Source of the DNA: a virus | Length of the DNA stretch: 64,000 bases | Virus record (IMG/VR): IMGVR_UViG_3300036715_001865 | Coordinates: 32,001-96,000 of that record | Reading direction: 5' to 3' (one strand) | In this document: positions 2,272-45,850 of the stretch, one piece after another | Layout: every line of letters starts with the position of its first letter | Numbering within the stretch: the first letter of the stretch is position 1 | Notes under the pieces: generated by a model | What the model was told of the DNA's origin: nothing | The model's input: the letters and a program-made list of their open reading frames with translations, nothing else | Database searches by the model: none | Made by a program: the position numbers and the translations under genes

Positions 2272-3738
2272 TCACATTAACACATATTTAATCTTGCCAC
2301 AGTCCCATATCCGCAAAACTCCATTTAAGTCACAATTAACTTTTTCACTCAACTGCTCGTCATATTTTTTTAATAATTTTGATAGGTACTTTCGACGATA
2401 GTTAAATTTGTGTACCCGATTGTGTCCATCTGGGGAATAATAATAATCAGGAGGTAGAGTACTTACAGAAATAAACCCAGTGGCTTGGTATAACTCTCCT
2501 GAACTCCACCTCAAATCCGCAAATGTTACGATCTGGGACGGAGCATAATTGGTTTTGAAATATGATAATAACTTAGTAAACCCACCTACAATCAATGAAG
2601 ATGTGGCATATCTATTTAACACAAATGCTCCACCCTGTTGTTGTATAAACGACATACAAGATACCAACTCATTGTCATATGTTAGTCCTATATTAATGGA
2701 ACTAGGACCGTCCCCTTGTATGTGGTGGGCAGTAAGAAAGGATTGCTTAACATCTGGAGATACTGTTTGGATAATACACTTTCTGCCATATAACCGAGGT
2801 CGATTATCACAGTTTAATAAAATATTTAATTTTTCTTTTATTATAGGTTGTTTTTGTTTCCACTCATCTTCGTATATTGTCAACAATCTAATACCCAACT
2901 GTTCACACATTTTGTGTTTGGTGCTGTGATAATGTTTATGTTTACCTTGTTGTTCACTGTGCCAATACAACCCACAATACTCAATTGCTAAATTATACTC
3001 TGGTATGAATATATCAAGCTCATATGGAGGTATGATAGTACGAACATTGACATCAAACGAAATAGACAATCCACGTAAATAATCACCTATTTGTTTTTCG
3101 CCAGTAGATACGAAAAAATGCTTTGTATCATATCCTAGTTTATGCAAGTTTCGTTGAACTGTATTAACATCAACTTCTAGCTCTGTAGCGATATCACTCA
3201 ATGTTCTTTTATTGACATGGTGTTGTTCTTGTAACCACGTAGGGTCTATTAATTTGGAATAACTGGTAGGTATTATGTGTTTTTGATTTTTGTGTATTCT
3301 ACCATACCGTTGGATATTTGTGCTTTGTTGTTTATTTTTAACTTCAACAGTTTGTTGTGGAATAGTAGTACCATACCGTTGGACATTTGTATTATTGCGC
3401 TTGATGATCCGATTAGGATTATCAATCCCACATTTATACGAACAGGTATCAGAATACCCAACATTTTTTCCTGTTGTATTAAACTTAACTAGACTATGAC
3501 ACACTACACACAGTTTTGGGGAGATTATATGGTTTTTAATACAATGAACCCTCTCCCTAAGAGACGATTTTAAATCATCTGTTATGAAGTCGGTGCGGGT
3601 CATTATATATGAAGTTGCAACAGGGTTTAATTTCAACACCCCAAATGATTTTTTTGATAATTTATAATCACTATCTAGTATACCACAATCTACTAGGTGG
3701 GTCAGAATTTCACTATCAGTTTTAAATTCATCAGACAC
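2272..3738 (-). CDS. Hef-like endonuclease with C-terminal GNAT/Mom-like module
   Basis: Zn motif and RYG repeats; ELDIFIPEYNLAIEYCGLYWHS nuclease motif; HIQG...LNRY...GGFTKL...TFADLRW...GF...IWDCG module. Confidence 0.8.
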   Translation of the reverse strand: MSDEFKTDSEILTHLVDCGILDSDYKLSKKSFGVLKLNPVATSYIMTRTDFITDDLKSSLRERVHCIKNHIISPKLCVVCHSLVKFNTTGKNVGYSDTCSYKCGIDNPNRIIKRNNTNVQRYGTTIPQQTVEVKNKQQSTNIQRYGRIHKNQKHIIPTSYSKLIDPTWLQEQHHVNKRTLSDIATELEVDVNTVQRNLHKLGYDTKHFFVSTGEKQIGDYLRGLSISFDVNVRTIIPPYELDIFIPEYNLAIEYCGLYWHSEQQGKHKHYHSTKHKMCEQLGIRLLTIYEDEWKQKQPIIKEKLNILLNCDNRPRLYGRKCIIQTVSPDVKQSFLTAHHIQGDGPSSINIGLTYDNELVSCMSFIQQQGGAFVLNRYATSSLIVGGFTKLLSYFKTNYAPSQIVTFADLRWSSGELYQATGFISVSTLPPDYYYSPDGHNRVHKFNYRRKYLSKLLKKYDEQLSEKVNCDLNGVLRIWDCGKIKYVLM

Positions 3739-3799
3739 AAAAAACTCCTATTTTTATTAATATTATATAGGAGTTTTTTGTTTTTTACAACATTACTTA
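3725..3799. repeat. 75-bp direct repeat carrying promoter, hairpin, SD and first codons
   Basis: 3725-3792 is identical to 5318-5385 (68 bp), followed by one mismatch and 6 more identities. Confidence 0.95.
3738..3790 (-). promoter_or_regulatory. sigma70 promoter within a terminator-like, SD-sequestering hairpin
   Basis: TTGTAA(3790-3785)-N17-TATAAT(3767-3762). 14-bp stem CAAAAAACTCCTAT/ATAGGAGTTTTTTG; the U6 tract is the SD-to-GTG spacer. Confidence 0.8.
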
Positions 3800-5331
3800 G
3801 TCAATACCCATCTCTGTAGACCACAATTATATATTTGGTGTATGTTGTTATTGTGGGTATTGGTTACTTCACTTAGGTTGGGGTCATAAGTTTTTAATAG
3901 ATTAGGTAAGTTCTTGTGTCTATAATTAAATTTATGAACCCGACACTCGCCTATAACATATTGGTAATCAGGAGGAGTAATTTTATCTAACACAAACCCA
4001 TTTGTACCATATATTGTTCCAACACTCCATCTCAGATCAGCAAAACTTATAATAGTAGCCCACTCATTATTATTTTTAAAATGCGACAATAATTTACTAA
4101 ACCCACCTCGCACCTGTCCAATGGTAGCATACCTATTCAATACAAAGTTGCCTTCACCTTTATTAATAAAGGTCATCATCGCTACAAAATTGCCACCATA
4201 GGTAAGTCCATATGTTGTGGACCCTGGACCATCTCCTTGTATATGATAGGAATCAAAAAATTCTGATTTTGTTTTCTTGTTTGGTACTGTGATTACACAC
4301 GACCGCCCATTAATTTTTACACCTTCACTATATCCAAGTATAGTTCTGATGGTATTTTTAACCAGGTGTGAATTATTCAACCACTCATCCGAGAATATAG
4401 TGATTAATCTAATTCCAATATCTGCACACCTATTATATTTCATTTGGTGATAATTGGATGTTTTGTATTCAGAGGAGTGCCAATATAATCCACAATATTC
4501 TATGGCTATGTTTTTATCAGGGATGTAAATATCTAGTTCATATGGTTTAATTAATGACCTATTTTTAACTTCAAAAATTACACCAATTTCTGTTAGAAAC
4601 CGTTCAATATCAACTTGTTGCTGTGAAGATGATTGGTGCCAATACTGTACTTCTATTCCATGTTTTATTAATCTACTAGAGACTACTTTATGGGAGTTTT
4701 TCCAATGTAATCCCAATTCAACACACATAGATGCAACTGTCCGTTGATTAGTTATGTGTTGTTCATACAACCAATCAACGCTATTGAGTTTATTAATGGC
4801 TTCCTCAGATAAAACAGATAATAGCTTGACTGTGCTGGACGGTATCCACCCATTATCAATCTTTCGTCCTATGGTTATTTTTCTAATTTGTTTACTATGT
4901 TCACTATATTGTCTATGTTGAGACAGTGCAGTTAATTGAATTTTTTGACGAGTATCAGTTGATGTTGTGTTGCCGTTGTTCCAATGGGTAATTTGTCCAG
5001 TTGAGAATCGTTCTTTTCTGGTATTGGACAATTGAATGTTTTGTTCAACTGTTCTTGGGATGCCTTTGTTCCAAGCTTGGGTAGGATTATCTAATTTTGT
5101 TTGTTTTATCTTTTCAACCACCTCTAATGATCTTGGTACTCCTTTTCTACTTGAATTTGATCTAATGGCTGCTTCTCGTTTTCTATTGGTTGCATTTGTG
5201 GACTTTAAAACAGCAGTGGGATACAACAGTTTATACTCTGGTAACGTGGTGCTATGTTTTGAAAGATGTTTCCATGTAATGGTAGACATTTCTGCACCAC
5301 ATATCAAACATTTAATTAATTCATCAGACAC
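3793..5331 (-). CDS. Hef-like endonuclease with C-terminal GNAT/Mom-like module
   Basis: N-terminal CxxC..H..H zinc finger and NUMOD3-like 'AWNKG' repeats; ELDIYIPDKNIAIEYCGLYWHS; HIQG...SFADLRW...NCG module. Confidence 0.8.
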   Translation of the reverse strand: MSDELIKCLICGAEMSTITWKHLSKHSTTLPEYKLLYPTAVLKSTNATNRKREAAIRSNSSRKGVPRSLEVVEKIKQTKLDNPTQAWNKGIPRTVEQNIQLSNTRKERFSTGQITHWNNGNTTSTDTRQKIQLTALSQHRQYSEHSKQIRKITIGRKIDNGWIPSSTVKLLSVLSEEAINKLNSVDWLYEQHITNQRTVASMCVELGLHWKNSHKVVSSRLIKHGIEVQYWHQSSSQQQVDIERFLTEIGVIFEVKNRSLIKPYELDIYIPDKNIAIEYCGLYWHSSEYKTSNYHQMKYNRCADIGIRLITIFSDEWLNNSHLVKNTIRTILGYSEGVKINGRSCVITVPNKKTKSEFFDSYHIQGDGPGSTTYGLTYGGNFVAMMTFINKGEGNFVLNRYATIGQVRGGFSKLLSHFKNNNEWATIISFADLRWSVGTIYGTNGFVLDKITPPDYQYVIGECRVHKFNYRHKNLPNLLKTYDPNLSEVTNTHNNNIHQIYNCGLQRWVLTK

Positions 5332-5392
5332 AAAAAACTCCTATTTTTATTAATATTATATAGGAGTTTTTTGTTTTTTACAACACTACTTA
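5318..5392. repeat. 75-bp direct repeat (second copy), directly behind the sheath stop codon
   Basis: Partner of 3725..3799; contains the same promoter, hairpin and GTG TCT GAT GAA TT start. Confidence 0.95.
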
Positions 5393-5394
5393 AG

Positions 5395-7128
5395 TTATGC
5401 TGTCAAGGACGCACCGGTTGCAACAATTCGGATTGGAATATATATAAATTCCGCGGCCCTTACAGGTTTCAATGCGACATCGAGATACATTTCATTTCTA
5501 TCAATGCGATCAGGTGTATTATTAGAGGAATCACAGACTGTAGCGAAATCATATAGACCACGTTTAACAATCAAATCACCCAAAAATGAATCAACAGCAG
5601 CTTTTAGGTTATCTCTGGTTAGTTGATCATTTGGTTCAAACACAAACGGCATTGTGTTTTTGCGTAATGAACGTTTGATATATTGAACCAAACGTACCAC
5701 ATTGATACGATCCATTGCTGAAGCATCCGGAGCAGAAGTTTTTTGTCCCCATACAATAATACCTCTTCCTGGGAAGAACACAATAGGATTAATATTGGTA
5801 AAGTATTTGTATAAGTTATCTCTTTGTCCTAAATTCAAAGCAACTGGGTTGAATGTAGTTGGTGTTCCTAGAGTACCAGATACATATCCAACTTCAGATA
5901 TACTTGATACTTGTCCACGTCTAGTTCCAGCTGGTGCAAACCACATTTCTGACACTTCATCACTGTATATGATTGTGCGTAATGCAGTACCAGATGCTGA
6001 AACGAATACATTTGCTCCATCTAAATTTGATGCTAATCCGTGTGGATAATAATATGCCACATTTCGGTTAGATCTTCGTTCAACAGTAGCAGCCCAAGTT
6101 ACAACATCTTCTGGAGTTTTGGTAAATGGAGTATCAGCAATAACAAATGCTTCTTCTTGTATATCAATTACCAAATTGATTAATTCATCCACAACTTCAG
6201 GGAAACCAGGACATACAACAATGTTATATTCGTATGCTTCTGATCTTATATCAGTGTTGCTGTTAATAGATGCTTGTAAGGCTGTAACAACAGCAACTCT
6301 ACGTGCAGCATCATTTGAACCAAGGCTAGTTTCGTTGGCAAATTGATTAGTATACTTAAATTCATCAGCACCACCCAATAAAGCGTTACCAGCTTCTTGT
6401 GGAGTCCATTCAGTAGTTACAATTCCACCTAAGTTATTGTTAACCCAGTCAGTTGCAATTCCAGCTAATCCAAGAAATACACCAGTTGCAGCATTAGTAC
6501 AACCATTAGCATACACTAAATATGGAGAGGACGCATGGTCATCCATGAAACTAATACGACTGTGTGCAAATGAGAACATGCTCCAAATAGGTTGTGTTGC
6601 TGCTGCTGCAAGTGATAAGAATTTGGTACGATTGATAGTGGTTTTGTAAGTTGGGTCTGATGGAACATATCCATTTGATAAATTAAATTCATTCAAATAT
6701 GCATTTGCTAAATTTTCCAGAACATACGAAGCTTCTTGGATTTTAGTATCCCACATCATTTGAATATCAGCAACATTATCGTTCAAGTTTACATTTGCAC
6801 GAATAACATATGCTCTGCTACAAATACCTAAACACTGATTCAATGCAAACAAACCGTATTCATTTCGGGTATCCCCATGTAGTGGTCTACCACTAGTATC
6901 TGTTAAGAATTTAGGAATACCATACAATTCAGTACTTTGTCTTAAACTGGTAAGAGTTCGGATCACATTAGATTCATATGTGCCTGCCGCCCCAGATATA
7001 CCATCTGGTTTAGTTTTTTCATCAGCTGTTGCTATGAAAATTAATGGGACAGTTTTAGCTGATGCTGGAATGAAAAAGGATTCATCTGTCACAGTAACTG
7101 ATACCCCTGGGCTAATTAAATTTGCCAT
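5395..7128 (-). CDS. gp18: Contractile tail sheath protein
   Basis: 'LISPGVSVTVTDES' N-terminus; 'WFAPAGTRRG', 'WGQKT', 'DRINVVRL', 'FVFEPND..TR', 'KPVRAAEFIYI' sheath motifs. Confidence 0.95.
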   Translation of the reverse strand: MANLISPGVSVTVTDESFFIPASAKTVPLIFIATADEKTKPDGISGAAGTYESNVIRTLTSLRQSTELYGIPKFLTDTSGRPLHGDTRNEYGLFALNQCLGICSRAYVIRANVNLNDNVADIQMMWDTKIQEASYVLENLANAYLNEFNLSNGYVPSDPTYKTTINRTKFLSLAAAATQPIWSMFSFAHSRISFMDDHASSPYLVYANGCTNAATGVFLGLAGIATDWVNNNLGGIVTTEWTPQEAGNALLGGADEFKYTNQFANETSLGSNDAARRVAVVTALQASINSNTDIRSEAYEYNIVVCPGFPEVVDELINLVIDIQEEAFVIADTPFTKTPEDVVTWAATVERRSNRNVAYYYPHGLASNLDGANVFVSASGTALRTIIYSDEVSEMWFAPAGTRRGQVSSISEVGYVSGTLGTPTTFNPVALNLGQRDNLYKYFTNINPIVFFPGRGIIVWGQKTSAPDASAMDRINVVRLVQYIKRSLRKNTMPFVFEPNDQLTRDNLKAAVDSFLGDLIVKRGLYDFATVCDSSNNTPDRIDRNEMYLDVALKPVRAAEFIYIPIRIVATGASLTA

Positions 7129-7215
7129 GTTGTTTCTCCTTGGGAAAATTATATTAATTATATTTCACACATTTCATCCCGCAGATAATGCAAGAACTTT
7201 ATTGTGTTACATATA

Positions 7216-7223
7216 TATTTATC
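7216..7223 (-). promoter_or_regulatory. Probable late promoter variant GATAAATA (sheath)
   Basis: One mismatch to TATAAATA; the only candidate upstream of the sheath start. Confidence 0.55.
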
Positions 7224-7239
7224 AAAAAGTACTTTTTTG

Positions 7240-7268
7240 TTGGCTTTTGATCTAATAGCATATATAAT
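7240..7268 (+). promoter_or_regulatory. sigma70-type promoter of the reverse-oriented endonuclease
   Basis: TTGGCT(7240-7245)-N17-TATAAT(7263-7268). Confidence 0.65.
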
Positions 7269-7319
7269 AAGAGTAATCAGTAATCATAACTTCAACCAGA
7301 TAAGGAATCATCAGTAATC

Positions 7320-8927
7320 ATGAATGAGCTTGAAACAGAATTGCACAAATTAAACATATTCACCCACAATGGAACTATTAATAAACAAGCGTCCAGATTA
7401 TTAACCAACAATCCTGAGACATTATATAAATTAATAGAAGCAACAAAATTTCTAGAAAACCACCCCTCTAATCGAGCCAGATTACATGCTTTGAGAACGG
7501 GACTATTATCACAACCCAAGTGTGCAACATGCTCAACAGCCACTACATTTAATAATGCGACTGGACAGTTTAATAAATTTTGTCCAAATACTGGTGGGAA
7601 ATCTTGTACAAACAGTAACACAGACTCCATTCTTAAAAAAAATACCACTATGGTTAAAAAGTATGGAGTTACCAATGCTGCACACAGTGAGGAGTTACAA
7701 ACCAAACGGAACAATACTATGGTGGCTAGGTATGGCTGTACAACACCTATACAAAATGCTGACATTAAACAAAAAATAAAAGATACCATGATGGCTAGAT
7801 ATGGAACGATGCATATTGCTCATATTCCACAATCTGCCACGAAACGAAAGGAAACTAACATCCGCAAATTTGGAGCTGCTACATATGCTCAATCATTGGT
7901 GCCCACTGAAGCTATAGACCTATTATCAAACATAGATTGGTTGTCAGACAATTTAAAAGATTTTACGGTGGCAGAAGTTGCGATAGCAGCAAACACGTCT
8001 GTATTTACGGTTAGAAAATGGATTTATCATCACAATCTACAACACTTGTTGGTATCAACTGGCTCATCTGATCAACGAGAGTTGGCAAGATTCCTAGATA
8101 CACTGGATTTAGAATATACAACCAATGATAAGCAACTAATTGCTCCAAAGGAAGTGGATTTTTATATACCATCCAAGCAATTAGCTGTGGAATATAATGG
8201 AATTTTTTACCACTCACAGTTATCAAAACGAGATAAAAATTACCACATAAACAAAACAACTAGTTGCAACAATAATGGGGTTAGATTAATTCAAATATGG
8301 TCAAATGAATGGAAAAACAAGAAAGACATTGTACAATCCAGAATATTACATGCTGTCGGAATGTCTACTCGAATATATGCTCGGAAGTGTAATATAATTG
8401 TATTACCAACAGCAAACGAACAACAATTTTTTGACGATAACCACATACAGGGAGCAGTACGATCAACTATTTGTTTTGGATTGGAATTGGATGGTAAAGT
8501 GGTAGCATGTATGAGTTTTATAAAATCCAGATTTTCCCCAACTCATGAATGGGAACTATTAAGATATAGTGGCATTAAAAACCATACAATATTAGGTGGC
8601 GCAAGCAAATTGTTTAAACATTTTGTAAAAACACATAATCCAACATCTATAGTGTCCTACTGCGACCTACGTTGGGGAACTGGGACATTATATTCCCAAT
8701 TAGGTTTTACATATTCACACACAAGTGCACCTAATTATTTTTATTTTGTCAGAAATGGGGATACTAATAAGTTATTCACAAGGGTCAATTTCCAAAAGCA
8801 CAAACTAGCTAATAAACTAACCACATTTACCCCAGAACATACAGAATGGGAAAACATGGTTAATAATGGTTATGATAGAATTTGGGATTGTGGGAACAAG
8901 GTATTTACTTGGAATAATGGCGGATAG
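7320..8927 (+). CDS. Hef-like endonuclease with GNAT/Mom-like module, antisense to the structural operon
   Basis: Zn motif and KYG repeats; EVDFYIPSKQLAVEYNGIFYHS; NHIQG...WELLRY...GGASKL...SYCDLRW...IWDCG. Confidence 0.8.
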   Translation: MNELETELHKLNIFTHNGTINKQASRLLTNNPETLYKLIEATKFLENHPSNRARLHALRTGLLSQPKCATCSTATTFNNATGQFNKFCPNTGGKSCTNSNTDSILKKNTTMVKKYGVTNAAHSEELQTKRNNTMVARYGCTTPIQNADIKQKIKDTMMARYGTMHIAHIPQSATKRKETNIRKFGAATYAQSLVPTEAIDLLSNIDWLSDNLKDFTVAEVAIAANTSVFTVRKWIYHHNLQHLLVSTGSSDQRELARFLDTLDLEYTTNDKQLIAPKEVDFYIPSKQLAVEYNGIFYHSQLSKRDKNYHINKTTSCNNNGVRLIQIWSNEWKNKKDIVQSRILHAVGMSTRIYARKCNIIVLPTANEQQFFDDNHIQGAVRSTICFGLELDGKVVACMSFIKSRFSPTHEWELLRYSGIKNHTILGGASKLFKHFVKTHNPTSIVSYCDLRWGTGTLYSQLGFTYSHTSAPNYFYFVRNGDTNKLFTRVNFQKHKLANKLTTFTPEHTEWENMVNNGYDRIWDCGNKVFTWNNGG

Positions 8928-8930
8928 CCA

Positions 8931-9698
8931 TTATTCCCAAGGTAGATCAGCAGCATCATCTATTTTCTCATATTGCAAATTTTGAGAATCTAATTCACTA
9001 ATAATATCAAATGGCATTTCAGTAGAAGTGTTTATGATTCCTATTCTTGCATATATTCTTTCTACAAAATCACGGCGGACTTCTGCTGGGGTATCTAATT
9101 CAATAGGCATTTCAAATGTAAGCCTACTTTGTATGATTCTTTTATCTGTGCCTATTGGAAAGTTTGTTTCTAATTGAACATCTTTTAATTCCACATGAGT
9201 CAATCTTGTCCAATCAAATATTGCGTCACTTGTTTGGATATTAAGTGATGGGTCAAATAATGGAAGAATTTGTTCCATTATTTGTAAGTGTTGTTGTGTA
9301 TTACTTGCAAATATATTGAGTTCAATTGTTAAGTTGTATGGGACAGGCATACGTTGGTGAATAACCCTCATATCATCTGGAACCAACCCACCAACAGGAG
9401 TATACGTCTGTCTACGTTCAGTACCAACACCACGAGCTCGTTGCATAGTTAAAGTTAGACCACTCATATATGCACTCATAATAGGTAATCGTAAAGGTTT
9501 GTTGTGGGTGTTTTCAGTTTTTAAGGCTGCTACAACCTTGTCCATGTGTCCATAATGAATCCCAACAGGTATCAATGCAGCTTCTCTATCATTCCATTTT
9601 CCGACCTGTACCTGCAACCCACCAAATATGGCCATAAATTGATTTATATACCTAGCCAACTGTCCATTGTAGTAGTAGCCATCTTTTTGCATTGCCAT
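8931..9698 (-). CDS. gp15: Tail sheath stabiliser / tail terminator
   Basis: 'YYYNGQL..Y...F..IF', 'PVPYNLTIELNIFASN....LQIMEQILPLFDPS' match T4 gp15; position between neck and sheath genes. Confidence 0.8.
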   Translation of the reverse strand: MAMQKDGYYYNGQLARYINQFMAIFGGLQVQVGKWNDREAALIPVGIHYGHMDKVVAALKTENTHNKPLRLPIMSAYMSGLTLTMQRARGVGTERRQTYTPVGGLVPDDMRVIHQRMPVPYNLTIELNIFASNTQQHLQIMEQILPLFDPSLNIQTSDAIFDWTRLTHVELKDVQLETNFPIGTDKRIIQSRLTFEMPIELDTPAEVRRDFVERIYARIGIINTSTEMPFDIISELDSQNLQYEKIDDAADLPWE

Positions 9699-9725
9699 GT
9701 AATATTATCCTTTTTATTGAACTTG

Positions 9726-9733
9726 TATTTATA
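9726..9733 (-). promoter_or_regulatory. Late promoter TATAAATA (gp15-like gene)
   Basis: Exact consensus upstream of the start codon. Confidence 0.85.
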
Positions 9734-9741
9734 ACCTAAAT

Positions 9742-11289
9742 TTATTTAACATCTCTTGATGGTTTTTTATATCTACTGGTTGCATACTCATCTAAGATAG
9801 GTTTTTGACTATTAAATTCCAATCGTTTGTCTGTTTCTAAGAAAATCCACCTACCTTTTACAGCAGAGTATCTATACAACCTTGCTGGCACATCTTTAGC
9901 TAATCCTACATATATTAACCTATGATAATCCCCATCAATAGGAGAACTTGGAAACGTGTCACTTTCTGTATATGGTTGTCCATTTTGTGGCATAGCGTCT
10001 TCAACATACAACCTAGCACGTTTAAACCCTGTTTTTTCAATACTTGGTAAATTAACTGCTTTTGCACTACTGATTTCTTCATCAGTAAATTCTCGTATAG
10101 TATTAGACCCCTCACTGCCTTTTTCAGGTACATCATCTTTTGATTTTGCTTTTATAGCTTGGTCAATATCAGAATAATCTTGCCACATAGGGTTATGTCC
10201 ATCGTTAATATCCATTAATCCAGTACTATCTTTTTTAGCAACTAAATCTCCGAATATATCTTGTGTTTCTTGTGACGCTAATGCAGGTAATGCAGTAATA
10301 AGTAACATGAGCGGTGCCCAACCAGGCGAATATGAAGCTGGATCCCAAGCAACATCTGTCACCTCTAAATATCTACGAATAACTCTCATATCAGGTGTAT
10401 ATTGTAATTCACTAGGTAGTTCAATAATATCCCCAACAATAACTGGTCTACCCAAAATAGATACACAAGATGTAAAATTTATTTTTATAACATAGGTTAC
10501 TTGTATTTCTATACCAAATCGCTGTAAATCTGAGGTAGATTGTGATAAATCATAGTAACCTTTTAACAAAAACGGGGCTTGTGAATAGTTTCTGTCTCTA
10601 TTTTCCATCAATATTTTATCTTGGATGTTTGATAAGTCAGTTACGGTGTATTCATGAAACTCAAGAGCTTGAACTCCCCAACTATCACAGTCATGACCTG
10701 TCATAGTTATTGGACGCAACCTCCAATATCTACACGGAGCTGAATTTGCAAAGTGTATAGTATTTAATATATTATTATCTGGTAAGTTTATGATTGCTAC
10801 TCCATACCATTCAATATTATCATCTGAACGCTCAACTCGAGCCTTAGTCACCCGAGAAGCTGGGTTATTGCTTTGTTTGATTTTTATTGTTGTGATTTCT
10901 TTTCTGATACTAGCATCAATCCCATATCTCTGCCTTCCTGAAGGCAGTTTAATAATGCCAAAGTCATATCCAATATATCCTGAGGATAACAATAAGGCAC
11001 TTGATTGTCGTGAATGCCACTCTGATGTTAGCTTATTAAATGCGTTACTAGCTGGAAACCCAACAGCATCTCCACTAGATATAGCTGTACCGTTACCTGT
11101 TAAATCCAACAATTTAGTTTGTTCGTATACTCCAAGTAGTTTATATACGTTTATTTTTGCTCCAGCAATTGCTACAGATTCTTGAATGTAATGGTCTGCT
11201 AAATTATCAGTTTTTGGTTGCTCAGTTAAATCCCAAGGACGACAATTTGTCCAATTTGATGGAAGAGTACAGTTTTGTTTAGTTGCCAT
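9742..11289 (-). CDS. gp14: Neck/head-completion protein (gp14-like) with an inserted discoidin (F5/8-type) domain
   Basis: 'ESVAIAGAKINVY' and 'VGDIIELP' gp14-like blocks flank 'SNAFN..WHS...IGYDFG...VERSDDNIEW...RYWRL'; order gp13-gp14-gp15. Confidence 0.65.
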   Translation of the reverse strand: MATKQNCTLPSNWTNCRPWDLTEQPKTDNLADHYIQESVAIAGAKINVYKLLGVYEQTKLLDLTGNGTAISSGDAVGFPASNAFNKLTSEWHSRQSSALLLSSGYIGYDFGIIKLPSGRQRYGIDASIRKEITTIKIKQSNNPASRVTKARVERSDDNIEWYGVAIINLPDNNILNTIHFANSAPCRYWRLRPITMTGHDCDSWGVQALEFHEYTVTDLSNIQDKILMENRDRNYSQAPFLLKGYYDLSQSTSDLQRFGIEIQVTYVIKINFTSCVSILGRPVIVGDIIELPSELQYTPDMRVIRRYLEVTDVAWDPASYSPGWAPLMLLITALPALASQETQDIFGDLVAKKDSTGLMDINDGHNPMWQDYSDIDQAIKAKSKDDVPEKGSEGSNTIREFTDEEISSAKAVNLPSIEKTGFKRARLYVEDAMPQNGQPYTESDTFPSSPIDGDYHRLIYVGLAKDVPARLYRYSAVKGRWIFLETDKRLEFNSQKPILDEYATSRYKKPSRDVK

Positions 11290-11290
11290 A

Positions 11291-11602
11291 TTAATCTCCA
11301 GATTCCATTTTCTTTAGTTTTATATAATATTTAGGATCTTCAGTTAAGTGATCTTTTGCAATTAATTTTGCAATTAATTTTGATTTAGTATGTTCGAGTT
11401 CAACACTAATACCTAATTTTAATTGGGTAGTGTCAAATTCAGAATCTGGAACAAAATCGTGGTTTCCGATATTAGATATAATATCTTCAACTGAATCCTC
11501 TCCAATTTCATCGAGTTCTTTGCTAGTTACATTTAGCAACTTAGCTAGTTGTTGAATTTTATCGTTTTCAACGATAAAATGTTTGAATGTTTGATGTAAC
11601 AC
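11291..11602 (-). CDS. Small late protein with DUF5661-like C-terminus; possible internal head protein
   Basis: 'QLKLGISVELEHT...IAKDHLTEDPKYYIKLKKME'; N-terminus 'TFKHFIVE'. Confidence 0.6.
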   Translation of the reverse strand: MLHQTFKHFIVENDKIQQLAKLLNVTSKELDEIGEDSVEDIISNIGNHDFVPDSEFDTTQLKLGISVELEHTKSKLIAKLIAKDHLTEDPKYYIKLKKMESGD

Positions 11603-11604
11603 AA

Positions 11605-11641
11605 AAATACCCCCAAAGAGTTGTCTTTGGGGGTATTTATA
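11605..11641 (-). terminator. Terminator of the 825-aa gene that overlaps the next gene's late promoter and SD
   Basis: 15-bp stem (11605-11619/11624-11638) followed by a U-run; TATAAATA at 11641-11634. Confidence 0.75.
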
Positions 11642-11661
11642 ATCTACCTTACTTATACTAC

Positions 11662-14139
11662 TTATGGATTTACATTAGTATCATCTTGTAAATATTTCCA
11701 AACAGTGCCATTGAAGTACGTATACGCAAGAGTTTTTGGTAAAACTGCTGGAGTGGTTGGAACATGTGGTTTAGTACCAACATACAACACTTTAAAATGT
11801 GTGAATATAGGTGTACCACTTGGAGTTTTTTGTAAATGTGCAGCATCAATCAAATCTACAATACCTGAAACTGGTGCTGTAAATCCACGAGCATGAACAG
11901 CTTTAAATAAAGTACCATCTAATACCACCACCTTTGATGCTAATCCAGTAGTTGCTGATGTGATTTTAATATTACCACCAGTTATAGTTGCAGTAGCAGC
12001 AGCCCCCAAGTCAGTATTAATTTCAGATAACAATGTGGTAAATGTTTGTGCTGCACTTCCTTGAATACTAATTGGTTTAGATACTCCATCCACGATAACA
12101 TTAGCTGTATATAATGTTGGAGCTGTACTAGCTGTATAACTAATTCCAACATACCCTGTTAAACTACTAAACAATGCACCTACATCATGTATTAATACAG
12201 ATGAAGCTAAACCAGTAGTAGCAGATGTGATAACAATATCCCCCCCTGTTAGTGCAGCAGTTGCATATGTTACAGCTGCTTTTCCAGGTACTGCATGAGA
12301 TATTGATACCAACCCTGACACAGCTTTAAATAAAGTTACATCAGCAATAGATACCAACGACAATGCGCCTGTTGTTGCAGACGTGATTCGTAGATGACCA
12401 GCATTGATCGATGCCACAGCTGCTGCTCCCAAATCAGTATTAATTTCTGCTAACAAAGTTGTAACAGTTTGTGCTGCACTTCCCAACACTGAAATAGATT
12501 TGGCAACTCCGTCAACTGTAATAGTTGCAGTATATGTTGTAGTTCCAACTAAGCCTGTTGCAGCAGATCCAGACAAAAAGTTAATGTACTGTACATCTTG
12601 ATACCCAGCTGTTGCTGTAGAATTTAAATCAGTGTTGATTTCATCAATAACATGTTGGATAGTATCCCCCATAGCTCCAGTGAAGTTAATAGTTCTAATA
12701 TTACCATCAACATACACCGTTGAAGAATATGTACGCGATGAACTACCACCTGGATTTGTTGGTAACAAAAATGCGAAACTTGGTAAAGCAGCAAATAATG
12801 TACCATCAGTTATTACAACTGTTGAGTGTACTCCATATGTTGCAGATGTGATTCTAATATCTCCACCTGAAATAGAAGCAACCGCTGCTGCGCCTAAATC
12901 TGTATTAATTTCATTGATAACATCACCAAATGTTGCAATGGCTGCTGGCAAGATAGAAATTGATTTGGACACCCCATCAACTACTACTGTGGCTGTTAGT
13001 GCTGCCAACGAACCAGTACCAGCTACAGCAGTTGCAATAGTACTAAAACTTGTTAAAGCAGGGAATAATGTTCCAGCTGTAATTGCCACAGAAGAAGTGG
13101 TGCTTGTTGTTGCTGAAGTGATTTTGATGTTACCACCCGAAATAGAAGCAACCGCTGCTGCACCTAAATCTGTATTAATTTCAGCTAACAATGTGGTAAA
13201 TGTTAAGGCTGCTGAACCCAATATAGAAATTGCTTTTGACACACCATCAACTACTACTGTGGCAGTATAGGTAGGATATACAATATCTGTTCCACCCGCT
13301 GATACATTTCCGTTTGTGGAAGTCCATGCAGTATTAATTGCACCAATTAAGTCGGTTCCACTTCCAGCTGGGACAGTAACTACTACAGATGATGTTGCCC
13401 CAGTAGTGGACGAAGTGATAATCCATGCATTACCGATTGCAGCAACTGTTGCACCAGGAATTTGAGCATCTAACAGAACTGCCATAGAGGTCATGGTATC
13501 AATTCCAGTAGCAGATACGGTATATACCGTAGCAGTACCACCATCAACAGCAACCTTAATAGTATAACTAGCAGCGGCAATACCAAGAACAGTTGTTGGA
13601 GTAATTGCTGGGGTATCAGTAAACGCAATCGTTGCACTACCACTGGTTGCTGGAGTAAATAATCCAGTTGCATCACCACCAGCTTTTGCTACAGAAAAAT
13701 TAGCAAATTGATAACCAGCTGTAGGTACCAATGTTGTAGATGTCCCTGCAACAATTGGATTATTATAATTAACAATCTGGTATCCTTTGGTTCCAGCTGA
13801 TGCTGATAACCCTGATGGGTCTGTTGTTAATTTTGCGGCACCCAAATCAACTGTTGCTTTTCCAGCAGTTGCTGTAGCAACATTGCTGAGTCCTGTCGTT
13901 GACCCACCTGATTTAGATCCACCAAAATCGATAATTTGGCTACCTGCTGTTGGACCAGCTAACGGTAAAGCACCGCCATTATTTGTGATAAATTGTGTTA
14001 GAATACTTTTATCATCTTCTGATAACGTATCCCATAAAATAAGAGATCTGACACCGGCATCGGTTTTAAGAACGGCAGCATTATTCAATGTTCCGTTGAA
14101 ATGTACATTTTCGGATGTAATCCACACTGGGTTTGGCAT
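11662..14139 (-). CDS. Repetitive Ala/Thr/Gly-rich virion appendage or decoration protein
   Basis: Six copies of a 'YTATxxVDG...EINTDLG...ITSATT' module; late promoter at 14179-14186; lies among neck genes. Confidence 0.65.
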   Translation of the reverse strand: MPNPVWITSENVHFNGTLNNAAVLKTDAGVRSLILWDTLSEDDKSILTQFITNNGGALPLAGPTAGSQIIDFGGSKSGGSTTGLSNVATATAGKATVDLGAAKLTTDPSGLSASAGTKGYQIVNYNNPIVAGTSTTLVPTAGYQFANFSVAKAGGDATGLFTPATSGSATIAFTDTPAITPTTVLGIAAASYTIKVAVDGGTATVYTVSATGIDTMTSMAVLLDAQIPGATVAAIGNAWIITSSTTGATSSVVVTVPAGSGTDLIGAINTAWTSTNGNVSAGGTDIVYPTYTATVVVDGVSKAISILGSAALTFTTLLAEINTDLGAAAVASISGGNIKITSATTSTTSSVAITAGTLFPALTSFSTIATAVAGTGSLAALTATVVVDGVSKSISILPAAIATFGDVINEINTDLGAAAVASISGGDIRITSATYGVHSTVVITDGTLFAALPSFAFLLPTNPGGSSSRTYSSTVYVDGNIRTINFTGAMGDTIQHVIDEINTDLNSTATAGYQDVQYINFLSGSAATGLVGTTTYTATITVDGVAKSISVLGSAAQTVTTLLAEINTDLGAAAVASINAGHLRITSATTGALSLVSIADVTLFKAVSGLVSISHAVPGKAAVTYATAALTGGDIVITSATTGLASSVLIHDVGALFSSLTGYVGISYTASTAPTLYTANVIVDGVSKPISIQGSAAQTFTTLLSEINTDLGAAATATITGGNIKITSATTGLASKVVVLDGTLFKAVHARGFTAPVSGIVDLIDAAHLQKTPSGTPIFTHFKVLYVGTKPHVPTTPAVLPKTLAYTYFNGTVWKYLQDDTNVNP
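12863..13183. repeat. 51-bp intragenic direct repeat pair (12863-12913 and 13133-13183)
   Basis: 49 of 51 bases identical; 270 bp (90 codons) apart. Confidence 0.85.
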
Positions 14140-14178
14140 TTGTTGCTCCTTTGTAAGGCTTGTTTAATGTATACAATA

Positions 14179-14186
14179 TATTTATA
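14179..14186 (-). promoter_or_regulatory. Late promoter TATAAATA
   Basis: Exact consensus upstream of 14139. Confidence 0.85.
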
Positions 14187-14262
14187 CGTTATGCTATATT
14201 TTAGAAAGATATACCACCTCAGATTGACCAATAGATCAACAAGAGGTGGATTTATTGGGACA

Positions 14263-17199: not shown

Positions 17200-17227
17200 G
17201 TAAATATATTCCAAGTTAGGTATATAG

Positions 17228-17569: not shown

Positions 17570-17610
17570 AATTATAGATGTGCTGGTTATATCTTATTTA
17601 GTACAGCACC

Positions 17611-18483: not shown

Positions 18484-18510
18484 TTGTGTACCTACCTGTT
18501 GTTGTGTAGG

Positions 18511-18518
18511 TATTTATA
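18511..18518 (-). promoter_or_regulatory. Late promoter TATAAATA
   Basis: Exact consensus upstream of 18483. Confidence 0.85.
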
Positions 18519-18536
18519 CGGCCACCAAATGATTTG

Positions 18537-31205: not shown

Positions 31206-31240
31206 ATGCTTATTCCAGTTAAAGGTATATGTATATAGTA

Positions 31241-31993
31241 TTACCCATAACTAAATGAAACTCGTCCAGGTTGTCCATTAGTTCCTGGTCCTAATCTTCC
31301 ATCTCCACCATTCCCACCTACTGGTGCTGGATTTCTGCCACCATATATTGGACCAATCCATCCATACCCCAAGTAATCTGGGGAAGAACCTCTCCCACCT
31401 GGTTGCCCATTAGGGTTACCACCAACACCACCAAATCCATACTGTATACCTGGTTGCCCACCTTCCACTCTTACCAATTCAGCCCCTGTTGTATTATCAA
31501 ATATACCAGATTGCCCTCCCGCTACACCAGCAATAAATTGTACTGGATTGCCATTAGAGTCAAAATTGAACACATAATTACCATTGAATCGATAGGAGGC
31601 ACCCCATCCAACTTGGCCAACATCTATTCGAAGAATTTGGCCAGGAGTAACAGCCACACCCCAAGGGCCAAGCCATCCACCTGATCCACCCCCACTACCA
31701 ATCCAAGCATCTCCATCACTATAACAAGCACCAGCACCACCACCACCACCCCAAATATAATCAATAGAGAGGTAAGTAATATCCCAAGGAACAACCCACC
31801 AATATGAACCAGGCACATCATATAACATATATCCAGGAGCGGTAGGTGGTGGATCAGGTGGCCAATGCTTTGTCCACGCGCCACCTAAATTATGATGCAC
31901 CTTGGAACAAGGATACCAAACTCCCCCAATATTTTTAAATACTGCTCGGGGAACTGCCCAGTTCCCCCATTTGTTCAATAATAAACTAGCCAT
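31241..31993 (-). CDS. Glycine-rich fibre tip / adhesin-like protein
   Basis: Trp-rich N-terminus followed by many GGxGG motifs; directly downstream of the fibre gene. Confidence 0.65.
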   Translation of the reverse strand: MASLLLNKWGNWAVPRAVFKNIGGVWYPCSKVHHNLGGAWTKHWPPDPPPTAPGYMLYDVPGSYWWVVPWDITYLSIDYIWGGGGGAGACYSDGDAWIGSGGGSGGWLGPWGVAVTPGQILRIDVGQVGWGASYRFNGNYVFNFDSNGNPVQFIAGVAGGQSGIFDNTTGAELVRVEGGQPGIQYGFGGVGGNPNGQPGGRGSSPDYLGYGWIGPIYGGRNPAPVGGNGGDGRLGPGTNGQPGRVSFSYG

Positions 31994-32005
31994 TGTGCGT
32001 CTCCA

Positions 32006-33446: not shown

Positions 33447-36266
33447 TTATGGGATATAAGAGAATCCTTGTTTCATTTGAATAGTTAATGTATTGTCAAA
33501 TATATGACGAGCTTCTTCTCTGTGTGATATGATATATGTTGATAGTTCTTCTTCCTTAGCTCTACGCTTAATTACCTTTGCAGCCGCCTGAATTCCAACA
33601 GCATCTAAACCAACATCTAATACCTCATCTAACATCCAAATATTTACTTTGGTGTGTAATCGTTGTAAAACATCACTAAATGATAAGGACAGTGCTAGAT
33701 TAACTCGAGCCTTTTGTCCAGCTGATAAATTACCAAAATCTAAGGTATTACCAAATTGAGATATATTAGCAGTCATTTCATGTGTAAATTCAACCGTATG
33801 TCGCAATAGCATCTCTGACAAATAGTATTGCAGTCTAGTATTGAGATAAGGAATGTACTTGTTTAAAAGCATTTTCCTTACAAAACTATCCCGTTTTGTC
33901 AATAACTTCAATAACAGTTTTTGGTGCTCTACTTCTTTTGTTAAAATATTTACCTCTGAAAAATCAATTGAGTCTAGCTTGATGTTAATTAATTCATCTA
34001 ATGCCTCGGTGTGAGGGTTGGTACTAGACAATAACGTATCAATATTAGCCTCTATAGCACTACTTTGGTTTTGTATCTTCAACAAGTCTTTAATATTTGG
34101 TGAAGTAAGTTGTGGCTTTAGGTTGTTTTGAATATTTTCAAGAGCTTCAATGGCTGAGTCCACTTCTGAAAGTTCAATCAACAACTGTTCGTTTGTGTTG
34201 GTTAGTGTACTTACAGAGGATGAAAGCTCATTCAATTTAGTTTCCACATCATTATAATCCTGTAAACAATATGGACATTTATGGGATTGAAGCTGTTCAA
34301 GCTCCTTTGTGTATTTTGTTATTTGTGCTTTATTTGATTTAATGGAGTTTTCCAGTTTATCAAATTGGCCAATATCTACCACCAATTGAAGATTAACTTC
34401 TGTTAATTTATCATGGATTTCCTGTTGTTTTTCTAAATCAACACCCTTTATTTTTGATAATTGGGCTTGTAGTTCCGTTATCTTATTTTTGGTTGTATCT
34501 TCCCAATTAGAGATTCTTGTTTTGGTGTTTGTGATTTGGGAATTGTGTCTAATATGCTCTTGTTGGATTAAATCCAGTCTTGTTTTTTTGATTTTTAGAC
34601 TATTCTCAGTGTCCTTAATAAGCTCCTTCAATGCAACAGCTTTATCAGCTAATACAGTTAATCCCACCAGTCGTTCAAACATACCAGCTTGTTCCGCTTT
34701 TGGCAAATCTAAGAATGGATTCAAAGTCGCACTAAACACAACAATACGCACGAATAAGTCATATGATATCCCAATAACTTCTTCGATATACTTATTTGTA
34801 TTTGTAACACTATCTAATGTTTTATCTTCACCATTGATATAAAAATACACATTATTCCCATTTTTTGATTTCCGTTCTCGCTTAATTAAGTACACATCAT
34901 CTCCAATATCAAATTCAACAGATACTTCCATGTTTTTGTTGTTTATATTGTTGACCAATTTATCCTTGGAAATGTTTGAAACAGGTTTGTCAAATAAAGT
35001 GTACACCAATGCATTCAGTATTGTTGTATTGTGAGTAACAATAAAATCATCAGTAATATATAAATGTTCAGGGCTATCAATCATGATACACTGAGTTTCT
35101 TTTTCTCCTAAATATTCAACCATATCAATTCTCAACCCCGAGTTAGCATATTGGGTATGGCCAATAGATAGCTTTTCTAATTTTCTAGGTAATGTAAACA
35201 ATATATGAGGATTAGGTACTTGTATACTTACCTCATATGATAGTTGACCTTCGACTCGTTCAGAGTTTTGATTTTTATAGAACGGCAATCGTTTAGAAAT
35301 TTTTGCAGTTCCTCCGATACTCCTAATTAAATACTGAACATCTTGTGCTAATTGGTTACTAGAACTAGAAAAACTTATATTTTTCGTTTTTCCAACTGTT
35401 CCATCTGTATCCATAAGACCTTGCAATAATTCCAACTTTTGGTCGTAGTTGCTGTTTATCAAGTATTCAGTTGGAATAAACTTTGTGGATGACTTTGTGT
35501 GTAAAATACCCAATTGAGAAAGTTGCCGCCTAATAGATAATAAATTGTGTGACCCTTTTATATTATTAACAAGTATCCAATCATAATTAGGTGATTTTTT
35601 TCCATACTGCACTAAATGTTGTTTATGAGGTAGTAATAATGACTCGATCCTATCGATAGAGTGGGAATCTGCTGAAGTGAATAATATATATCCCCCACTC
35701 ATACAACCATCTCCCAATAAACTACCAAGTAGGTATGGGTGTATCATAAAATCACTTGGTGGTGTAGTTTTATCTGGTTGTATTTTTGGCACAAAAATAC
35801 TGTATCTGGGATTTTTGTTCTTCCACTCCTCTATTAATGGGATTATTTGTTTAGTGGTAAGGGTCCGAGTACCTCTCTTTCCACTCTGGTCCCACCTGTG
35901 AGAAAATACTTCCCACAAGTGATCTTCATCAGCTTCAGTAGTTCTGCCATCAGAAAATGTGATTTTGTATGTTGGTCTAATACCTTGTGGGTAAACTCCT
36001 ATTATGTTAGCTGTTTTACCATTTGGGGTACTGACTATATCTCCAACTTTACATTCCCCTATTGTTGTCCAACCAATTGGAGTTTTTACTTTACAGTGTA
36101 GTGGTTGAGCTTTACCAGTGCCATTGCCTCCCACACCTTCTGTAGTATCATCTAAATTTTCTCCCATTATTAATGTTGTGCCAACATTTGTAAATTCAAC
36201 CACAGTAGTGTTATTACCGTATGATAAAAAATTACGCATTGAAACAGTTTTAAAAGTAATATTCAT
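33447..36266 (-). CDS. gp46: Recombination ATPase subunit (gp46/Rad50/SbcC family) containing an intein
   Basis: 'MRNFLSYGN', Walker A GGNGTGK|T, coiled coil with CPYC hook, 'LSAGQKAR', 'LDEVLD', 'IISH'. Confidence 0.95.
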   Translation of the reverse strand: MNITFKTVSMRNFLSYGNNTTVVEFTNVGTTLIMGENLDDTTEGVGGNGTGKAQPLHCKVKTPIGWTTIGECKVGDIVSTPNGKTANIIGVYPQGIRPTYKITFSDGRTTEADEDHLWEVFSHRWDQSGKRGTRTLTTKQIIPLIEEWKNKNPRYSIFVPKIQPDKTTPPSDFMIHPYLLGSLLGDGCMSGGYILFTSADSHSIDRIESLLLPHKQHLVQYGKKSPNYDWILVNNIKGSHNLLSIRRQLSQLGILHTKSSTKFIPTEYLINSNYDQKLELLQGLMDTDGTVGKTKNISFSSSSNQLAQDVQYLIRSIGGTAKISKRLPFYKNQNSERVEGQLSYEVSIQVPNPHILFTLPRKLEKLSIGHTQYANSGLRIDMVEYLGEKETQCIMIDSPEHLYITDDFIVTHNTTILNALVYTLFDKPVSNISKDKLVNNINNKNMEVSVEFDIGDDVYLIKRERKSKNGNNVYFYINGEDKTLDSVTNTNKYIEEVIGISYDLFVRIVVFSATLNPFLDLPKAEQAGMFERLVGLTVLADKAVALKELIKDTENSLKIKKTRLDLIQQEHIRHNSQITNTKTRISNWEDTTKNKITELQAQLSKIKGVDLEKQQEIHDKLTEVNLQLVVDIGQFDKLENSIKSNKAQITKYTKELEQLQSHKCPYCLQDYNDVETKLNELSSSVSTLTNTNEQLLIELSEVDSAIEALENIQNNLKPQLTSPNIKDLLKIQNQSSAIEANIDTLLSSTNPHTEALDELINIKLDSIDFSEVNILTKEVEHQKLLLKLLTKRDSFVRKMLLNKYIPYLNTRLQYYLSEMLLRHTVEFTHEMTANISQFGNTLDFGNLSAGQKARVNLALSLSFSDVLQRLHTKVNIWMLDEVLDVGLDAVGIQAAAKVIKRRAKEEELSTYIISHREEARHIFDNTLTIQMKQGFSYIP
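35028..36110 (-). mobile_element. Class 3 intein (361 aa) with LAGLIDADG homing endonuclease
   Basis: Starts AQP after Walker A Lys52 and ends THN|T; block B 'EDHLW', block F 'TQCIMID'; LAGLIDADG motifs 'LLGSLLGDG' and 'LLQGLMDTDG'. Confidence 0.92.
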
Positions 36267-44280: not shown

Positions 44281-44284
44281 ATGT

Positions 44285-45850
44285 TTACCTCTTCCAACTC
44301 CATATAACATTTCCACAGTCCCAAAATTTATTATAATTATTATTAACCATATTTTCCCACTCTGTGAGAGTGGGATCAAAGGTTTGTAATTTGGTAACTA
44401 GTTTGTGTTTCTGAAACTGTATCCTAGAAAACACTACCAATGGATTTGAATTTTTGAAATAATAATAATTTGGAGCGGTTACTCCTATTTTATCAAAACC
44501 TATGTACATATACCAATTAGCTTCTCCCCACCTGTAATCATTATAAGAAATAATGGATGTTGGTTGAACTTGCTGCAAAAAGTGTTTGAATAATTTACTT
44601 GCTCCTCCTATTACATTAATATCTACAGCCGAACAAAATCTTATTAATTCAAACTCATAAGCCTTGTTATATCTTGGCCTTCCAAATGTCATTATGGCTA
44701 CTAATTTATTATCATACTCTAGTCCAAATGAATATTTTGCCCCACAGTATCCTTGAGTGTGGTTATGTTCTAAAAATTCTATTGCATTAGCCCGGGGCAC
44801 TTGAACTAGTTTGCATTTTCTTGCTGGTATACTTATCGTTTGGTGTACCATTGATCTGATTCTAGATTTCACAATGTGTTTATTGAAATACCAATCATGT
44901 TCAAAAATATGTACTAATTTTATACCCAACATAGCACATCTATTTGTTTTGTTTATGTGGTATTGTTTATCGTGAAATCGGGCGGAGTGCCAAAAATTCC
45001 CATTAAATTCAAATGCTAAGTTTAACTCTGGAATATACACATCTAATTCCAATGGAGGAATTATGTTTCTACTTGATTGTATTATTTTACAATCAAGTTC
45101 CGACTGGAGAAAATGAACTAGTTCATTTTCTCCAGTCGATGTACCCCAACAAATTTCAATATTGTGTTTTTGTCGATATCTAGTTAAACAACTAGGTGAT
45201 ACCCCCAATTCTAAGGATATATCATACAGTGAACTAATTGCGCATTTATTAGACATCCAAATAGGGTCGTTTAGTTTTAATAAAGAATCTTCAGAAATAT
45301 GTTGCTGTTTAATATATTTAGCTCCATACTTATCTTGCATGGTACTCTCCCTATTGTGGGTACTAAATTCTCCTCTGGGTGGATACAACTGTCCATATTT
45401 TGTATATAGTGTAGATTGAACTGTTTCTTTCCACCCTGGTAGTTGGGTGTTGTGCTCGACCCCATATCGTGCTAACATAGTTTGTTTTTGTTTTTGTTTT
45501 CTGTTACTAATCAGTTCGTGGTTATTATCCCTAGCTTGAATACTTAATTTCCAACTATCTAATTGTGTGTTGTGAGACACTCCGTGATTTGCCATCAATG
45601 TTGCTTTCTGCTTCTCAGCAAATTTAGGTACCATTGCCGAATGGGGTGCACCATACCTAGTTACCATAGTAGCTTGTCTTGATTTCGCTATATCTGGGTC
45701 AGCATACATGCATGCTGTTGAACAATATGTTCCAAATTGTCCTTTAGTTGGTTGCCACCGAACATGATTATCACATTGTTTGCATTTTATAGGAAGAGTT
45801 TTGTTGTGAATAGATAGCCACTCTTGTTGCTTCTTGGTTATTTTTTGCAT
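44285..45850 (-). CDS. Hef-like endonuclease with GNAT/Mom-like module, antisense within the baseplate cluster
   Basis: Zn motif and RYG repeats; ELDVYIPELNLAFEFNGNFWHS; NHTQG...FELIRF...GGASKL...SYNDYRW...FWDCG. Confidence 0.8.
   Translation of the reverse strand: MQKITKKQQEWLSIHNKTLPIKCKQCDNHVRWQPTKGQFGTYCSTACMYADPDIAKSRQATMVTRYGAPHSAMVPKFAEKQKATLMANHGVSHNTQLDSWKLSIQARDNNHELISNRKQKQKQTMLARYGVEHNTQLPGWKETVQSTLYTKYGQLYPPRGEFSTHNRESTMQDKYGAKYIKQQHISEDSLLKLNDPIWMSNKCAISSLYDISLELGVSPSCLTRYRQKHNIEICWGTSTGENELVHFLQSELDCKIIQSSRNIIPPLELDVYIPELNLAFEFNGNFWHSARFHDKQYHINKTNRCAMLGIKLVHIFEHDWYFNKHIVKSRIRSMVHQTISIPARKCKLVQVPRANAIEFLEHNHTQGYCGAKYSFGLEYDNKLVAIMTFGRPRYNKAYEFELIRFCSAVDINVIGGASKLFKHFLQQVQPTSIISYNDYRWGEANWYMYIGFDKIGVTAPNYYYFKNSNPLVVFSRIQFQKHKLVTKLQTFDPTLTEWENMVNNNYNKFWDCGNVIWSWKR

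Follow-up and report, generated by a model that had tools for sequence, protein, structure and literature searches.

The window analysed here is a stretch of 64,000 nucleotides, bases 32001-96000 of the 190,391-bp IMG/VR virus record IMGVR_UViG_3300036715_001865, which is estimated to be 54% complete. It carries a set of related genes whose products are, almost certainly, Hef-type homing endonucleases ending in a module of Mom-like GNAT fold. A reading made from the letters alone (the sequence-only reading) had pointed to five open reading frames (ORFs), at 2272, 3793, 7320, 19123 and 44285, with a common C-terminal module. The translations place all five at those coordinates, and a search of the record raises the copy number to six, the additional copy (P0006) lying at the left edge of the window. 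The genes and their principal parts are as follows.

2272-3738, minus strand: P0001, 488 amino acids, Hef-type homing endonuclease
2275-2841, minus strand: Mom-like GNAT module of P0001, residues 300-488
3793-5331, minus strand: P0002, 512 amino acids, Hef-type homing endonuclease
3796-4368, minus strand: Mom-like GNAT module of P0002
7320-8927, plus strand: P0003, 535 amino acids, Hef-type homing endonuclease, with its neighbours on the opposite strand
8151-8213, plus strand: EDxHD/Vsr-like catalytic core of P0003 (EVDFYIP...AVEYNGIFYH, residues 278-298)
8352-8924, plus strand: Mom-like GNAT module of P0003, residues 345-535, used for structure modelling
19123-20772, minus strand: P0004, 549 amino acids, putative HNH variant
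20038-20151, minus strand: HNH motif of P0004, residues 208-245
19126-19725, minus strand: Mom-like GNAT module of P0004, above the Pfam cut-off for Mom
44285-45850, minus strand: P0005, 521 amino acids, Hef-type homing endonuclease
44288-44857, minus strand: Mom-like GNAT module of P0005
G000:C1 30657-32213 of the record, minus strand: P0006, the sixth copy; its first 71 codons are window positions 1-213 and the rest (30657-32000) lies upstream of the window

A shared C-terminal module

Three parts of each protein, namely N-terminal array, nuclease and C-terminal module, were compared pairwise by BLASTP. Of these the module is conserved best, and a common block of about 190 amino acids, as the sequence-only reading had described it, is borne out by matches in all 15 pairs among the six copies (E-values from 1e-23 to 1e-76, identities of 29-56%). 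Conservation of the nuclease part extends to five copies, with P0004 as the exception, and the N-terminal parts range from E 1e-14 down to no match, with similarity at the level of repeats only. When the five original ORFs are aligned, 33 columns are invariant within this block of about 190 residues. If the module is numbered such that position 1 is residue 345 of P0003, the residues H31, Q33, G34, R71, G82, K86, D105, R107, W108, Y114, G118, F119, P127, Y129, Y131, C180 and G181 are invariant in all six copies. This confirms that the shared module is real and far beyond chance. The motifs originally given for it fit overall, but three copies have (V/C)LNRY instead of ELxR, P0004 has GIASKL and P0002 has YNCG.

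DNA-reading and nuclease parts

The N-terminal parts had been said to differ among the copies, and profile matches agree, with DUF7487, NUMOD3-like and zinc-finger variants among them. DUF7487 'KYG' repeats are found in P0001, P0003 and P0005, whereas the N-terminal part of P0002 gives a weak NUMOD3 match together with a Ros/MucR-type finger, and that of P0004 a DUF4379 treble-clef finger. The order of domains in P0001 is a zinc ribbon, DUF7487 repeats, a helix-turn-helix (HTH), an EDxHD/Vsr-like nuclease (ELDIFIP...AIEYCGLYWH at residue 240) and the Mom-like GNAT module; P0002 consists of a zinc finger, a NUMOD3-like segment, an HTH, an EDxHD nuclease and the module, and P0004 of treble-clef zinc fingers, a putative HNH nuclease, a middle domain lacking the Vsr catalytic motif, and the module.

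All copies match PHROG 3339 ('homing endonuclease') and PHROG 559, with E-values between 1e-53 and 1e-123. A tblastn search with P0003 found 420 phage records, many of them annotated as 'Hef' or 'Hef-like homing endonuclease', and in Campylobacter phages up to 12 places per genome are matched. A profile of five of the proteins matches the structure of I-Bth0305I (3R3P) in the middle domain (E 1.9e-6), and the Hef proteins of phages have already been assigned to the EDxHD (Vsr-like) homing endonuclease family (Taylor et al. 2011), so the claim that Hef is a Vsr-like homing endonuclease holds. The Asp and His of EDxHD are kept in P0001, P0002, P0003, P0005 and P0006, where the motif reads E(L/V)D(I/F/V)(Y/F)IP...A(I/V/F)E(Y/F)(C/N)G..(W/Y)H. 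The nuclease of these five copies resembles that of I-Bth0305I, the EDxHD prototype, in keeping the Asp (ELD) and the His (WH), and in both cases DNA-binding repeats and an HTH precede the nuclease; the fifth motif position does not align confidently between the two. I-Bth0305I differs from the copies described here in being intron-encoded and in ending with the nuclease, without a Mom-like domain.

The sequence-only reading needs correction for P0004, in which the Vsr-like catalytic motif is missing and an HNH motif is found instead. P0004 contains no EDxHD motif and shows no BLAST similarity to the other copies in the nuclease region. Its HNH signature reads HLDHIVP...NLQ...N, and 31 full-length homologues, from a total of 98 found, all keep residues D210, H211, N233 and N242. 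The model of P0004 has two strands and a helix at this region, and the Pfam HNH_4 profile gives a weak match (E 0.073); the fold-search list for P0004 was filled by matches to the GNAT domain. A segment 'FEDE' in the middle domain was aligned with the other copies by MAFFT, although BLAST finds no similarity there, and we considered that this domain may be a decayed Vsr-like domain. A count of nuclease motifs by regular expression among the 150 best representatives left 67 unclassified, as the expressions were too strict, and cannot be used as a frequency.

The same architecture, including the C-terminal module, is found in Hef of phage U5 and in Hef-like proteins of T4-like, Campylobacter, Dickeya (F-LimIII/VII/VIII/X), Klebsiella and Vibrio phages and of PA5oct. 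These proteins are 28-46% identical to P0003 over 50-98% of its length, and their genes are likewise free-standing between conserved T4-core genes and likewise present in multiple copies per genome. The copies described here differ in being divergent (less than 60% identical to anything in the phage collection), in coming from an uncultured phage, and in including P0004, which has a putative HNH nuclease instead of a Vsr-like one. Megablast of window positions 1-20000 revealed no close cultured relative, with no match among 50,697 phage records, and no NCBIfam family was matched by P0001, P0003, P0004 or P0279, the last being a related gene described below. The genes are new members of a known and very common kind, and not a new class.

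Fold and family of the module

A GNAT- or Mom-like character had been inferred for the module from its motifs, and structure comparison supports this, with Mom as the closest match. For P0003 residues 345-535, an AlphaFold2 model from 36 sequences reached a mean predicted local distance difference test score (pLDDT) of 95.1. When it was compared by Foldseek with 350,542 PDB chains, both chains of 8BV8 (Mu Mom S124A) came out on top (E 3e-6, template modelling (TM) scores 0.62/0.54), followed by about 100 GNAT acetyltransferases; 104 PDB matches were obtained at E<=1e-3, nearly all of them GNATs. The top Foldseek match of the full-length P0004 model (pLDDT 86.6) was again 8BV8. In the BFVD library of viral structures, Hef-like proteins came first (one of them from PA5oct), followed by stand-alone proteins of about 200 amino acids, which include an annotated Mom (TM 0.71, E 1e-10).

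According to VIA-align, Mom (Z 13.3) is tied with canonical GNATs (Z 12-14), but the longest aligned stretch is that with Mom, at 161 residues compared with about 130 for ordinary GNATs. In the model of the P0003 module, three helices (144-147, 149-155 and 165-171) separate strand 129-133 from strand 174-178. Mom has a helical (HTH-like) insertion between its last beta strands that is essential, and the aligned length is consistent with the module sharing this extra insertion. Prediction of a complex of two module copies scored 0.02, which is evidence neither for nor against a homodimer.

The tie in Z-scores bears on the alternative that the domain is a GNAT active on a target other than DNA, either a protein of the host or the phage, or a charged tRNA, as in the TacT/AtaT toxins. 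Such an activity could, for example, skew the repair, or slow down the host for as long as repair of the break takes; tRNA-acting GNATs are known, and canonical protein N-acetyltransferases score as high as Mom (Z about 13). Nevertheless, Mom came top of the Foldseek ranking with each of two independent models, the domain invariably comes joined to parts that target and cut DNA, and the signature arginine of Mom (R111), which is not general to GNATs, is invariant in the module. We regard a non-DNA target as improbable.

Profile comparison also points to Mom, as hhalign of the module profile against the Mom family gave E-values of 8.6e-6 and 6.2e-5, with probabilities of 83% and 65%. Profiles are needed on both sides, as comparison of single sequences with Mu Mom was uninformative (probability 2-9%). 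The Pfam family Mom (PF25680) is just passed by the module of P0004 (27.4 bits against a cut-off of 27.1), and homologues of P0004 carry precomputed matches to it; it is not matched by the P0003 module alone, nor by full-length P0001, P0002, P0003, P0005 and P0006. PHROG 1384 ('Mom-like') matches P0001, P0004 and P0005, with E-values of 1.5e-4, 3.9e-8 and 1.9e-4, respectively. No stand-alone Mom was found by PF25680 across the 190-kb record, which says little, since the first filter missed the P0004 module too.

The module belongs to a very large family. A phmmer search with the module against 1.84 billion cluster representatives found 16,513 at E<=1e-3 and 3,222 at E<=1e-30, where representative clusters of the family were counted at 50% identity. 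Close relatives are almost all proteins of 450-650 amino acids with the module at the C terminus. Short relatives (168-354 amino acids) were considered as stand-alone forms of the module and set aside, as they start inside or just before the nuclease domain, or do not have the N-terminal array, and resemble truncated gene calls or copies that have decayed. Genuine stand-alone Mom-like proteins turn up only among more distant matches.

Catalytic residues and acyl donor

Mom is a tRNA-dependent DNA aminoacyl-transferase that modifies adenine at N6 in dsDNA after replication, and it uses Gly-tRNA(Gly), not acyl-CoA (PMC13219725). Its active-site residues are H58, Y59, R111, S124, D149, R151 and Y159, of which R111, S124 and R151 are essential. 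R111 is a signature of Mom rather than of GNATs in general and is thought to recognise the DNA base, not the cofactor, while the C-terminal insertion has been proposed as a DNA-binding element. Equivalent residues of the module were identified from sequence and profile alignments, and their conservation was counted in 156 module sequences.

Mom H58: module H31, 156/156
Mom R111: module R71, 156/156
Mom S124: module S/T85, 127/156
Mom D149: module D105, 142/156
Mom R151: module R107, 138/156
Mom Y159: module Y114, 156/156
Mom Y59: replaced by I/L in the module

The six positions H31, R71, S/T85, D105, R107 and Y114 are retained in every one of the six copies of the record. Mu Mom (PF25680, 8BV8), the best structural match, and the module have a SFAD-x-R...G..YQ..GF motif in common, and the GNAT core and, probably, the helical insertion between the last strands as well. 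However, the module is only about 15% identical to Mu Mom, reaches the Pfam cut-off in P0004 alone, and never occurs without a fused nuclease, Mom itself being a stand-alone protein.

Differences are also seen at the cofactor loop, where the module has a GNAT-style G-G-x-S/T-K sequence and Mom has N-S-E-S-R. G82 (156/156) and G83 (153/156) occupy the position of the GNAT pyrophosphate loop at which Mom has N-S, but the loop does not have the leading Q/R of the GNAT motif Q/R-x-x-G-x-G/A, which lies between beta4 and alpha3, and its register is taken from sequence alignment only. S85 and Y114 are the candidates for the alpha3 Ser and alpha4 Tyr that accompany this loop in GNATs. Because a G-G loop stands where Mom has N-S, the acyl donor need not be the Gly-tRNA of Mom, and could be acyl-CoA or an aminoacyl-tRNA. 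Since the donor of Mom is Gly-tRNA(Gly), binding of acetyl-CoA alone would not be decisive for the module.

The Mom-like domain is probably catalytically active, and its substrate may be DNA, a tentative assignment with slightly less than even odds. The conserved residues can be explained differently if the domain has no transfer activity and serves the nuclease as a DNA-binding, base-flipping or oligomerisation module, in which case they would keep a flipped base, or the fold itself, in place. The proposed roles of R111 and of the C-terminal insertion in Mom suit this explanation, as does the lack of a conserved counterpart of Y59, and Hef has been described as an endonuclease, with no second activity. 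A pure clamp would hardly require that residues on the cofactor side be kept too, as they are (S85, equivalent to S124; Y114, equivalent to Y159; and the G82-G83 loop), and P0279 and I-Bth0305I are examples of enzymes that function, or are constructed, with no domain of this sort. We consider a domain without transfer activity rather unlikely.

Genomic context and mobility

The surrounding genes are those of a T4-like virion: the large terminase (upstream), tail tube, tail sheath, a gp15-like sheath stabiliser, head-tail adaptor, major head protein, portal, baseplate hub and baseplate wedge. Every copy sits amid such genes; P0003 lies between the gp15-like and tail-sheath genes, and P0005 between the baseplate hub (gp5-like) and wedge (gp6-like) genes. 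No tRNA genes were found in the window. In a related uncultured phage (L005), with a 70% identical sheath protein and the same gene order, the gp15-like and sheath genes are directly adjacent, as are the sheath and tube genes, and there is no endonuclease gene after the tube gene or after the capsid gene. At the corresponding places in our record we find P0003 between the gp15-like and sheath genes, P0002 and P0001 between the sheath and tube genes, P0279 and P0006 after the tube gene, and P0004 with two small ORFs after the capsid gene. This pattern of presence and absence is that of free-standing homing endonuclease genes, and fits homing elements better than a classical restriction-modification defence.

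One of the inserted genes belongs to a related kind.

364-1539, minus strand: P0279, 391 amino acids, related homing-endonuclease gene

P0279 has a zinc ribbon, DUF7487 repeats and an HTH as in the Hef copies, with a different Vsr-like nuclease end (YEFHGDYWHG). It adjoins P0006, and lies between the tail tube gene and a conserved gene for a protein of 473 amino acids.

The two small ORFs next to P0004 (290 and 150 amino acids) are located at 17611-18989 on the minus strand and have no PHROG or Pfam match. In L005 only about 100 bases separate the capsid gene from the conserved gene that follows it, and the two ORFs may have travelled with P0004.

A cut-and-protect role for Mom-nuclease pairs, which the sequence-only reading raised as a possible weapon against co-infecting phages, is not a new idea. 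Iyer, Anantharaman, Krishnan, Burroughs and Aravind (2021, Viruses 13:63; PMC7824862) described jumbo-phage Mom domains fused to nucleases of restriction endonuclease (REase) fold, and suggested a division of labour, with momylation as the protection of the phage and the nuclease directed against DNA of the host or of superinfecting phages. Their fusions have the same domain pairing and occur in several copies per genome (PMC7824862). The term homing endonuclease occurs 0 times in that paper, whereas the context described above points to homing elements; conversely, the Hef and EDxHD literature that we consulted does not discuss the C-terminal domain.

Applied to our record, the proposal would amount to a weapon similar to restriction-modification, in which the Mom-like domains modify adenines genome-wide and the fused nucleases degrade unmodified DNA of the host or of superinfecting phages. 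The published prediction for jumbo-phage Mom and REase fusions includes five copies in PA5oct (PMC7824862), and a 'putative homing endonuclease' of PA5oct closely matches our module in structure; the conserved catalytic residues of Mom speak for it as well. However, each copy carries its own long sequence-reading array, so that cutting is probably rare and site-specific rather than broad, and the genes are present or absent as insertions between conserved genes, which is how homing genes behave. Moreover, one Mom would suffice for genome-wide protection, making one per nuclease superfluous, and U5 Hef, the one tested member of the family, is described as a homing endonuclease that cuts near its own locus. 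A weapon of this type appears improbable.

A proposed role for the Mom-like domain

The explanation we favour, with a probability of roughly 0.45 for the whole, is that these genes of a T4-like giant phage encode Hef-type homing endonucleases whose Mom-like domain marks DNA locally. The N-terminal array would tether the enzyme to a site in or near the conserved neighbouring gene, the nuclease would cut the tethered site, and recombinational repair during co-infection would copy the gene across. The Mom-like domain, if it is an active transferase, may then acylate or aminoacylate a flipped base in the tethered DNA, which by analogy would be adenine at N6, and this local mark might protect the carrier genome, or the product of repair, against renewed cutting. 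We infer that a local, cis-acting mark is to be favoured over a genome-wide one, because every nuclease copy has a Mom-like domain of its own, because each has its own long sequence-reading array, and because the genes behave as homing insertions. That the module is better conserved than any other part of the proteins, and occurs with two unrelated nucleases, argues for a selected role tied to cutting.

The more specific components of this proposal are weaker. That the mark confers immunity to the enzyme's own nuclease is doubtful. It is a little more doubtful still that each Hef-type enzyme both cuts and marks its own target, as a programmable 'cut or mark' enzyme in one polypeptide that provides site-specific immunity, through an acyl or aminoacyl group placed on a base of its recognition site in the carrier genome.

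Several observations weigh against the favoured explanation. The similarity to Mom is distant, at 14-15% identity and hhalign probabilities of only 65-83%, and Y59 of Mom is among the replaced positions. P0279, in the same genome and with a similar array and a Vsr-like nuclease, has no Mom-like domain, and therefore homing-type genes do not need one. Literature searches gave no biochemical evidence for any Mom-like domain of Hef type. Finally, the 2005 work of Sandegren is said to have found that U5 Hef cut its own phage's DNA as well as that of phages without Hef; if this reported self-cutting held for native DNA, it would argue against self-immunity.

Many phages from research and therapy carry members of the module family, among them T4-like, Campylobacter, Klebsiella and Dickeya phages and PA5oct, and half of the protein is of putative function. 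With Mom now known as a tRNA-dependent DNA aminoacyl-transferase, site-specific marking by Hef-type enzymes has become a concrete and cheap question. If it occurs, it would explain how free-standing homing endonucleases spare their own genome, and would provide a second natural class of sequence-targeted DNA-acylating enzymes, with many sequence specificities. For the window itself the result is mainly a clean annotation; the question of the Mom-like domain is worthwhile, but neither new nor specific to this window.

Other genes of the window

An ORF of 825 amino acids (11662-14139, minus strand) lies between a head-tail adaptor-like gene and a virion gene for a protein of 515 amino acids, and has no PHROG or Pfam match. 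The same two genes are adjacent in L005 (5609 and 5616), and this ORF is therefore an insertion or a lineage-specific gene.

The tail sheath protein (5395-7128, minus strand) has 577 amino acids, compared with 658 in relatives with a 70% identical sheath (L005:8001-9977). The match splits into two blocks, and about 80 residues, probably a surface domain, are absent here.

A gene at 33447-36266 on the minus strand encodes an SbcC/gp46-like ATPase of 939 amino acids that matches PHROG 77 over residues 414-939. Its N-terminal residues 50-420 match unrelated PHROGs (terminase, primase, DnaC-like), and Pfam LAGLIDADG_3 matches at residues 275-331. These matches suggest an intein, bearing a LAGLIDADG homing endonuclease, within a recombination nuclease ATPase.

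Finally, a single ORF of 3,783 amino acids (49913-61264, plus strand) follows the baseplate wedge gene, and another long ORF continues past the end of the window.

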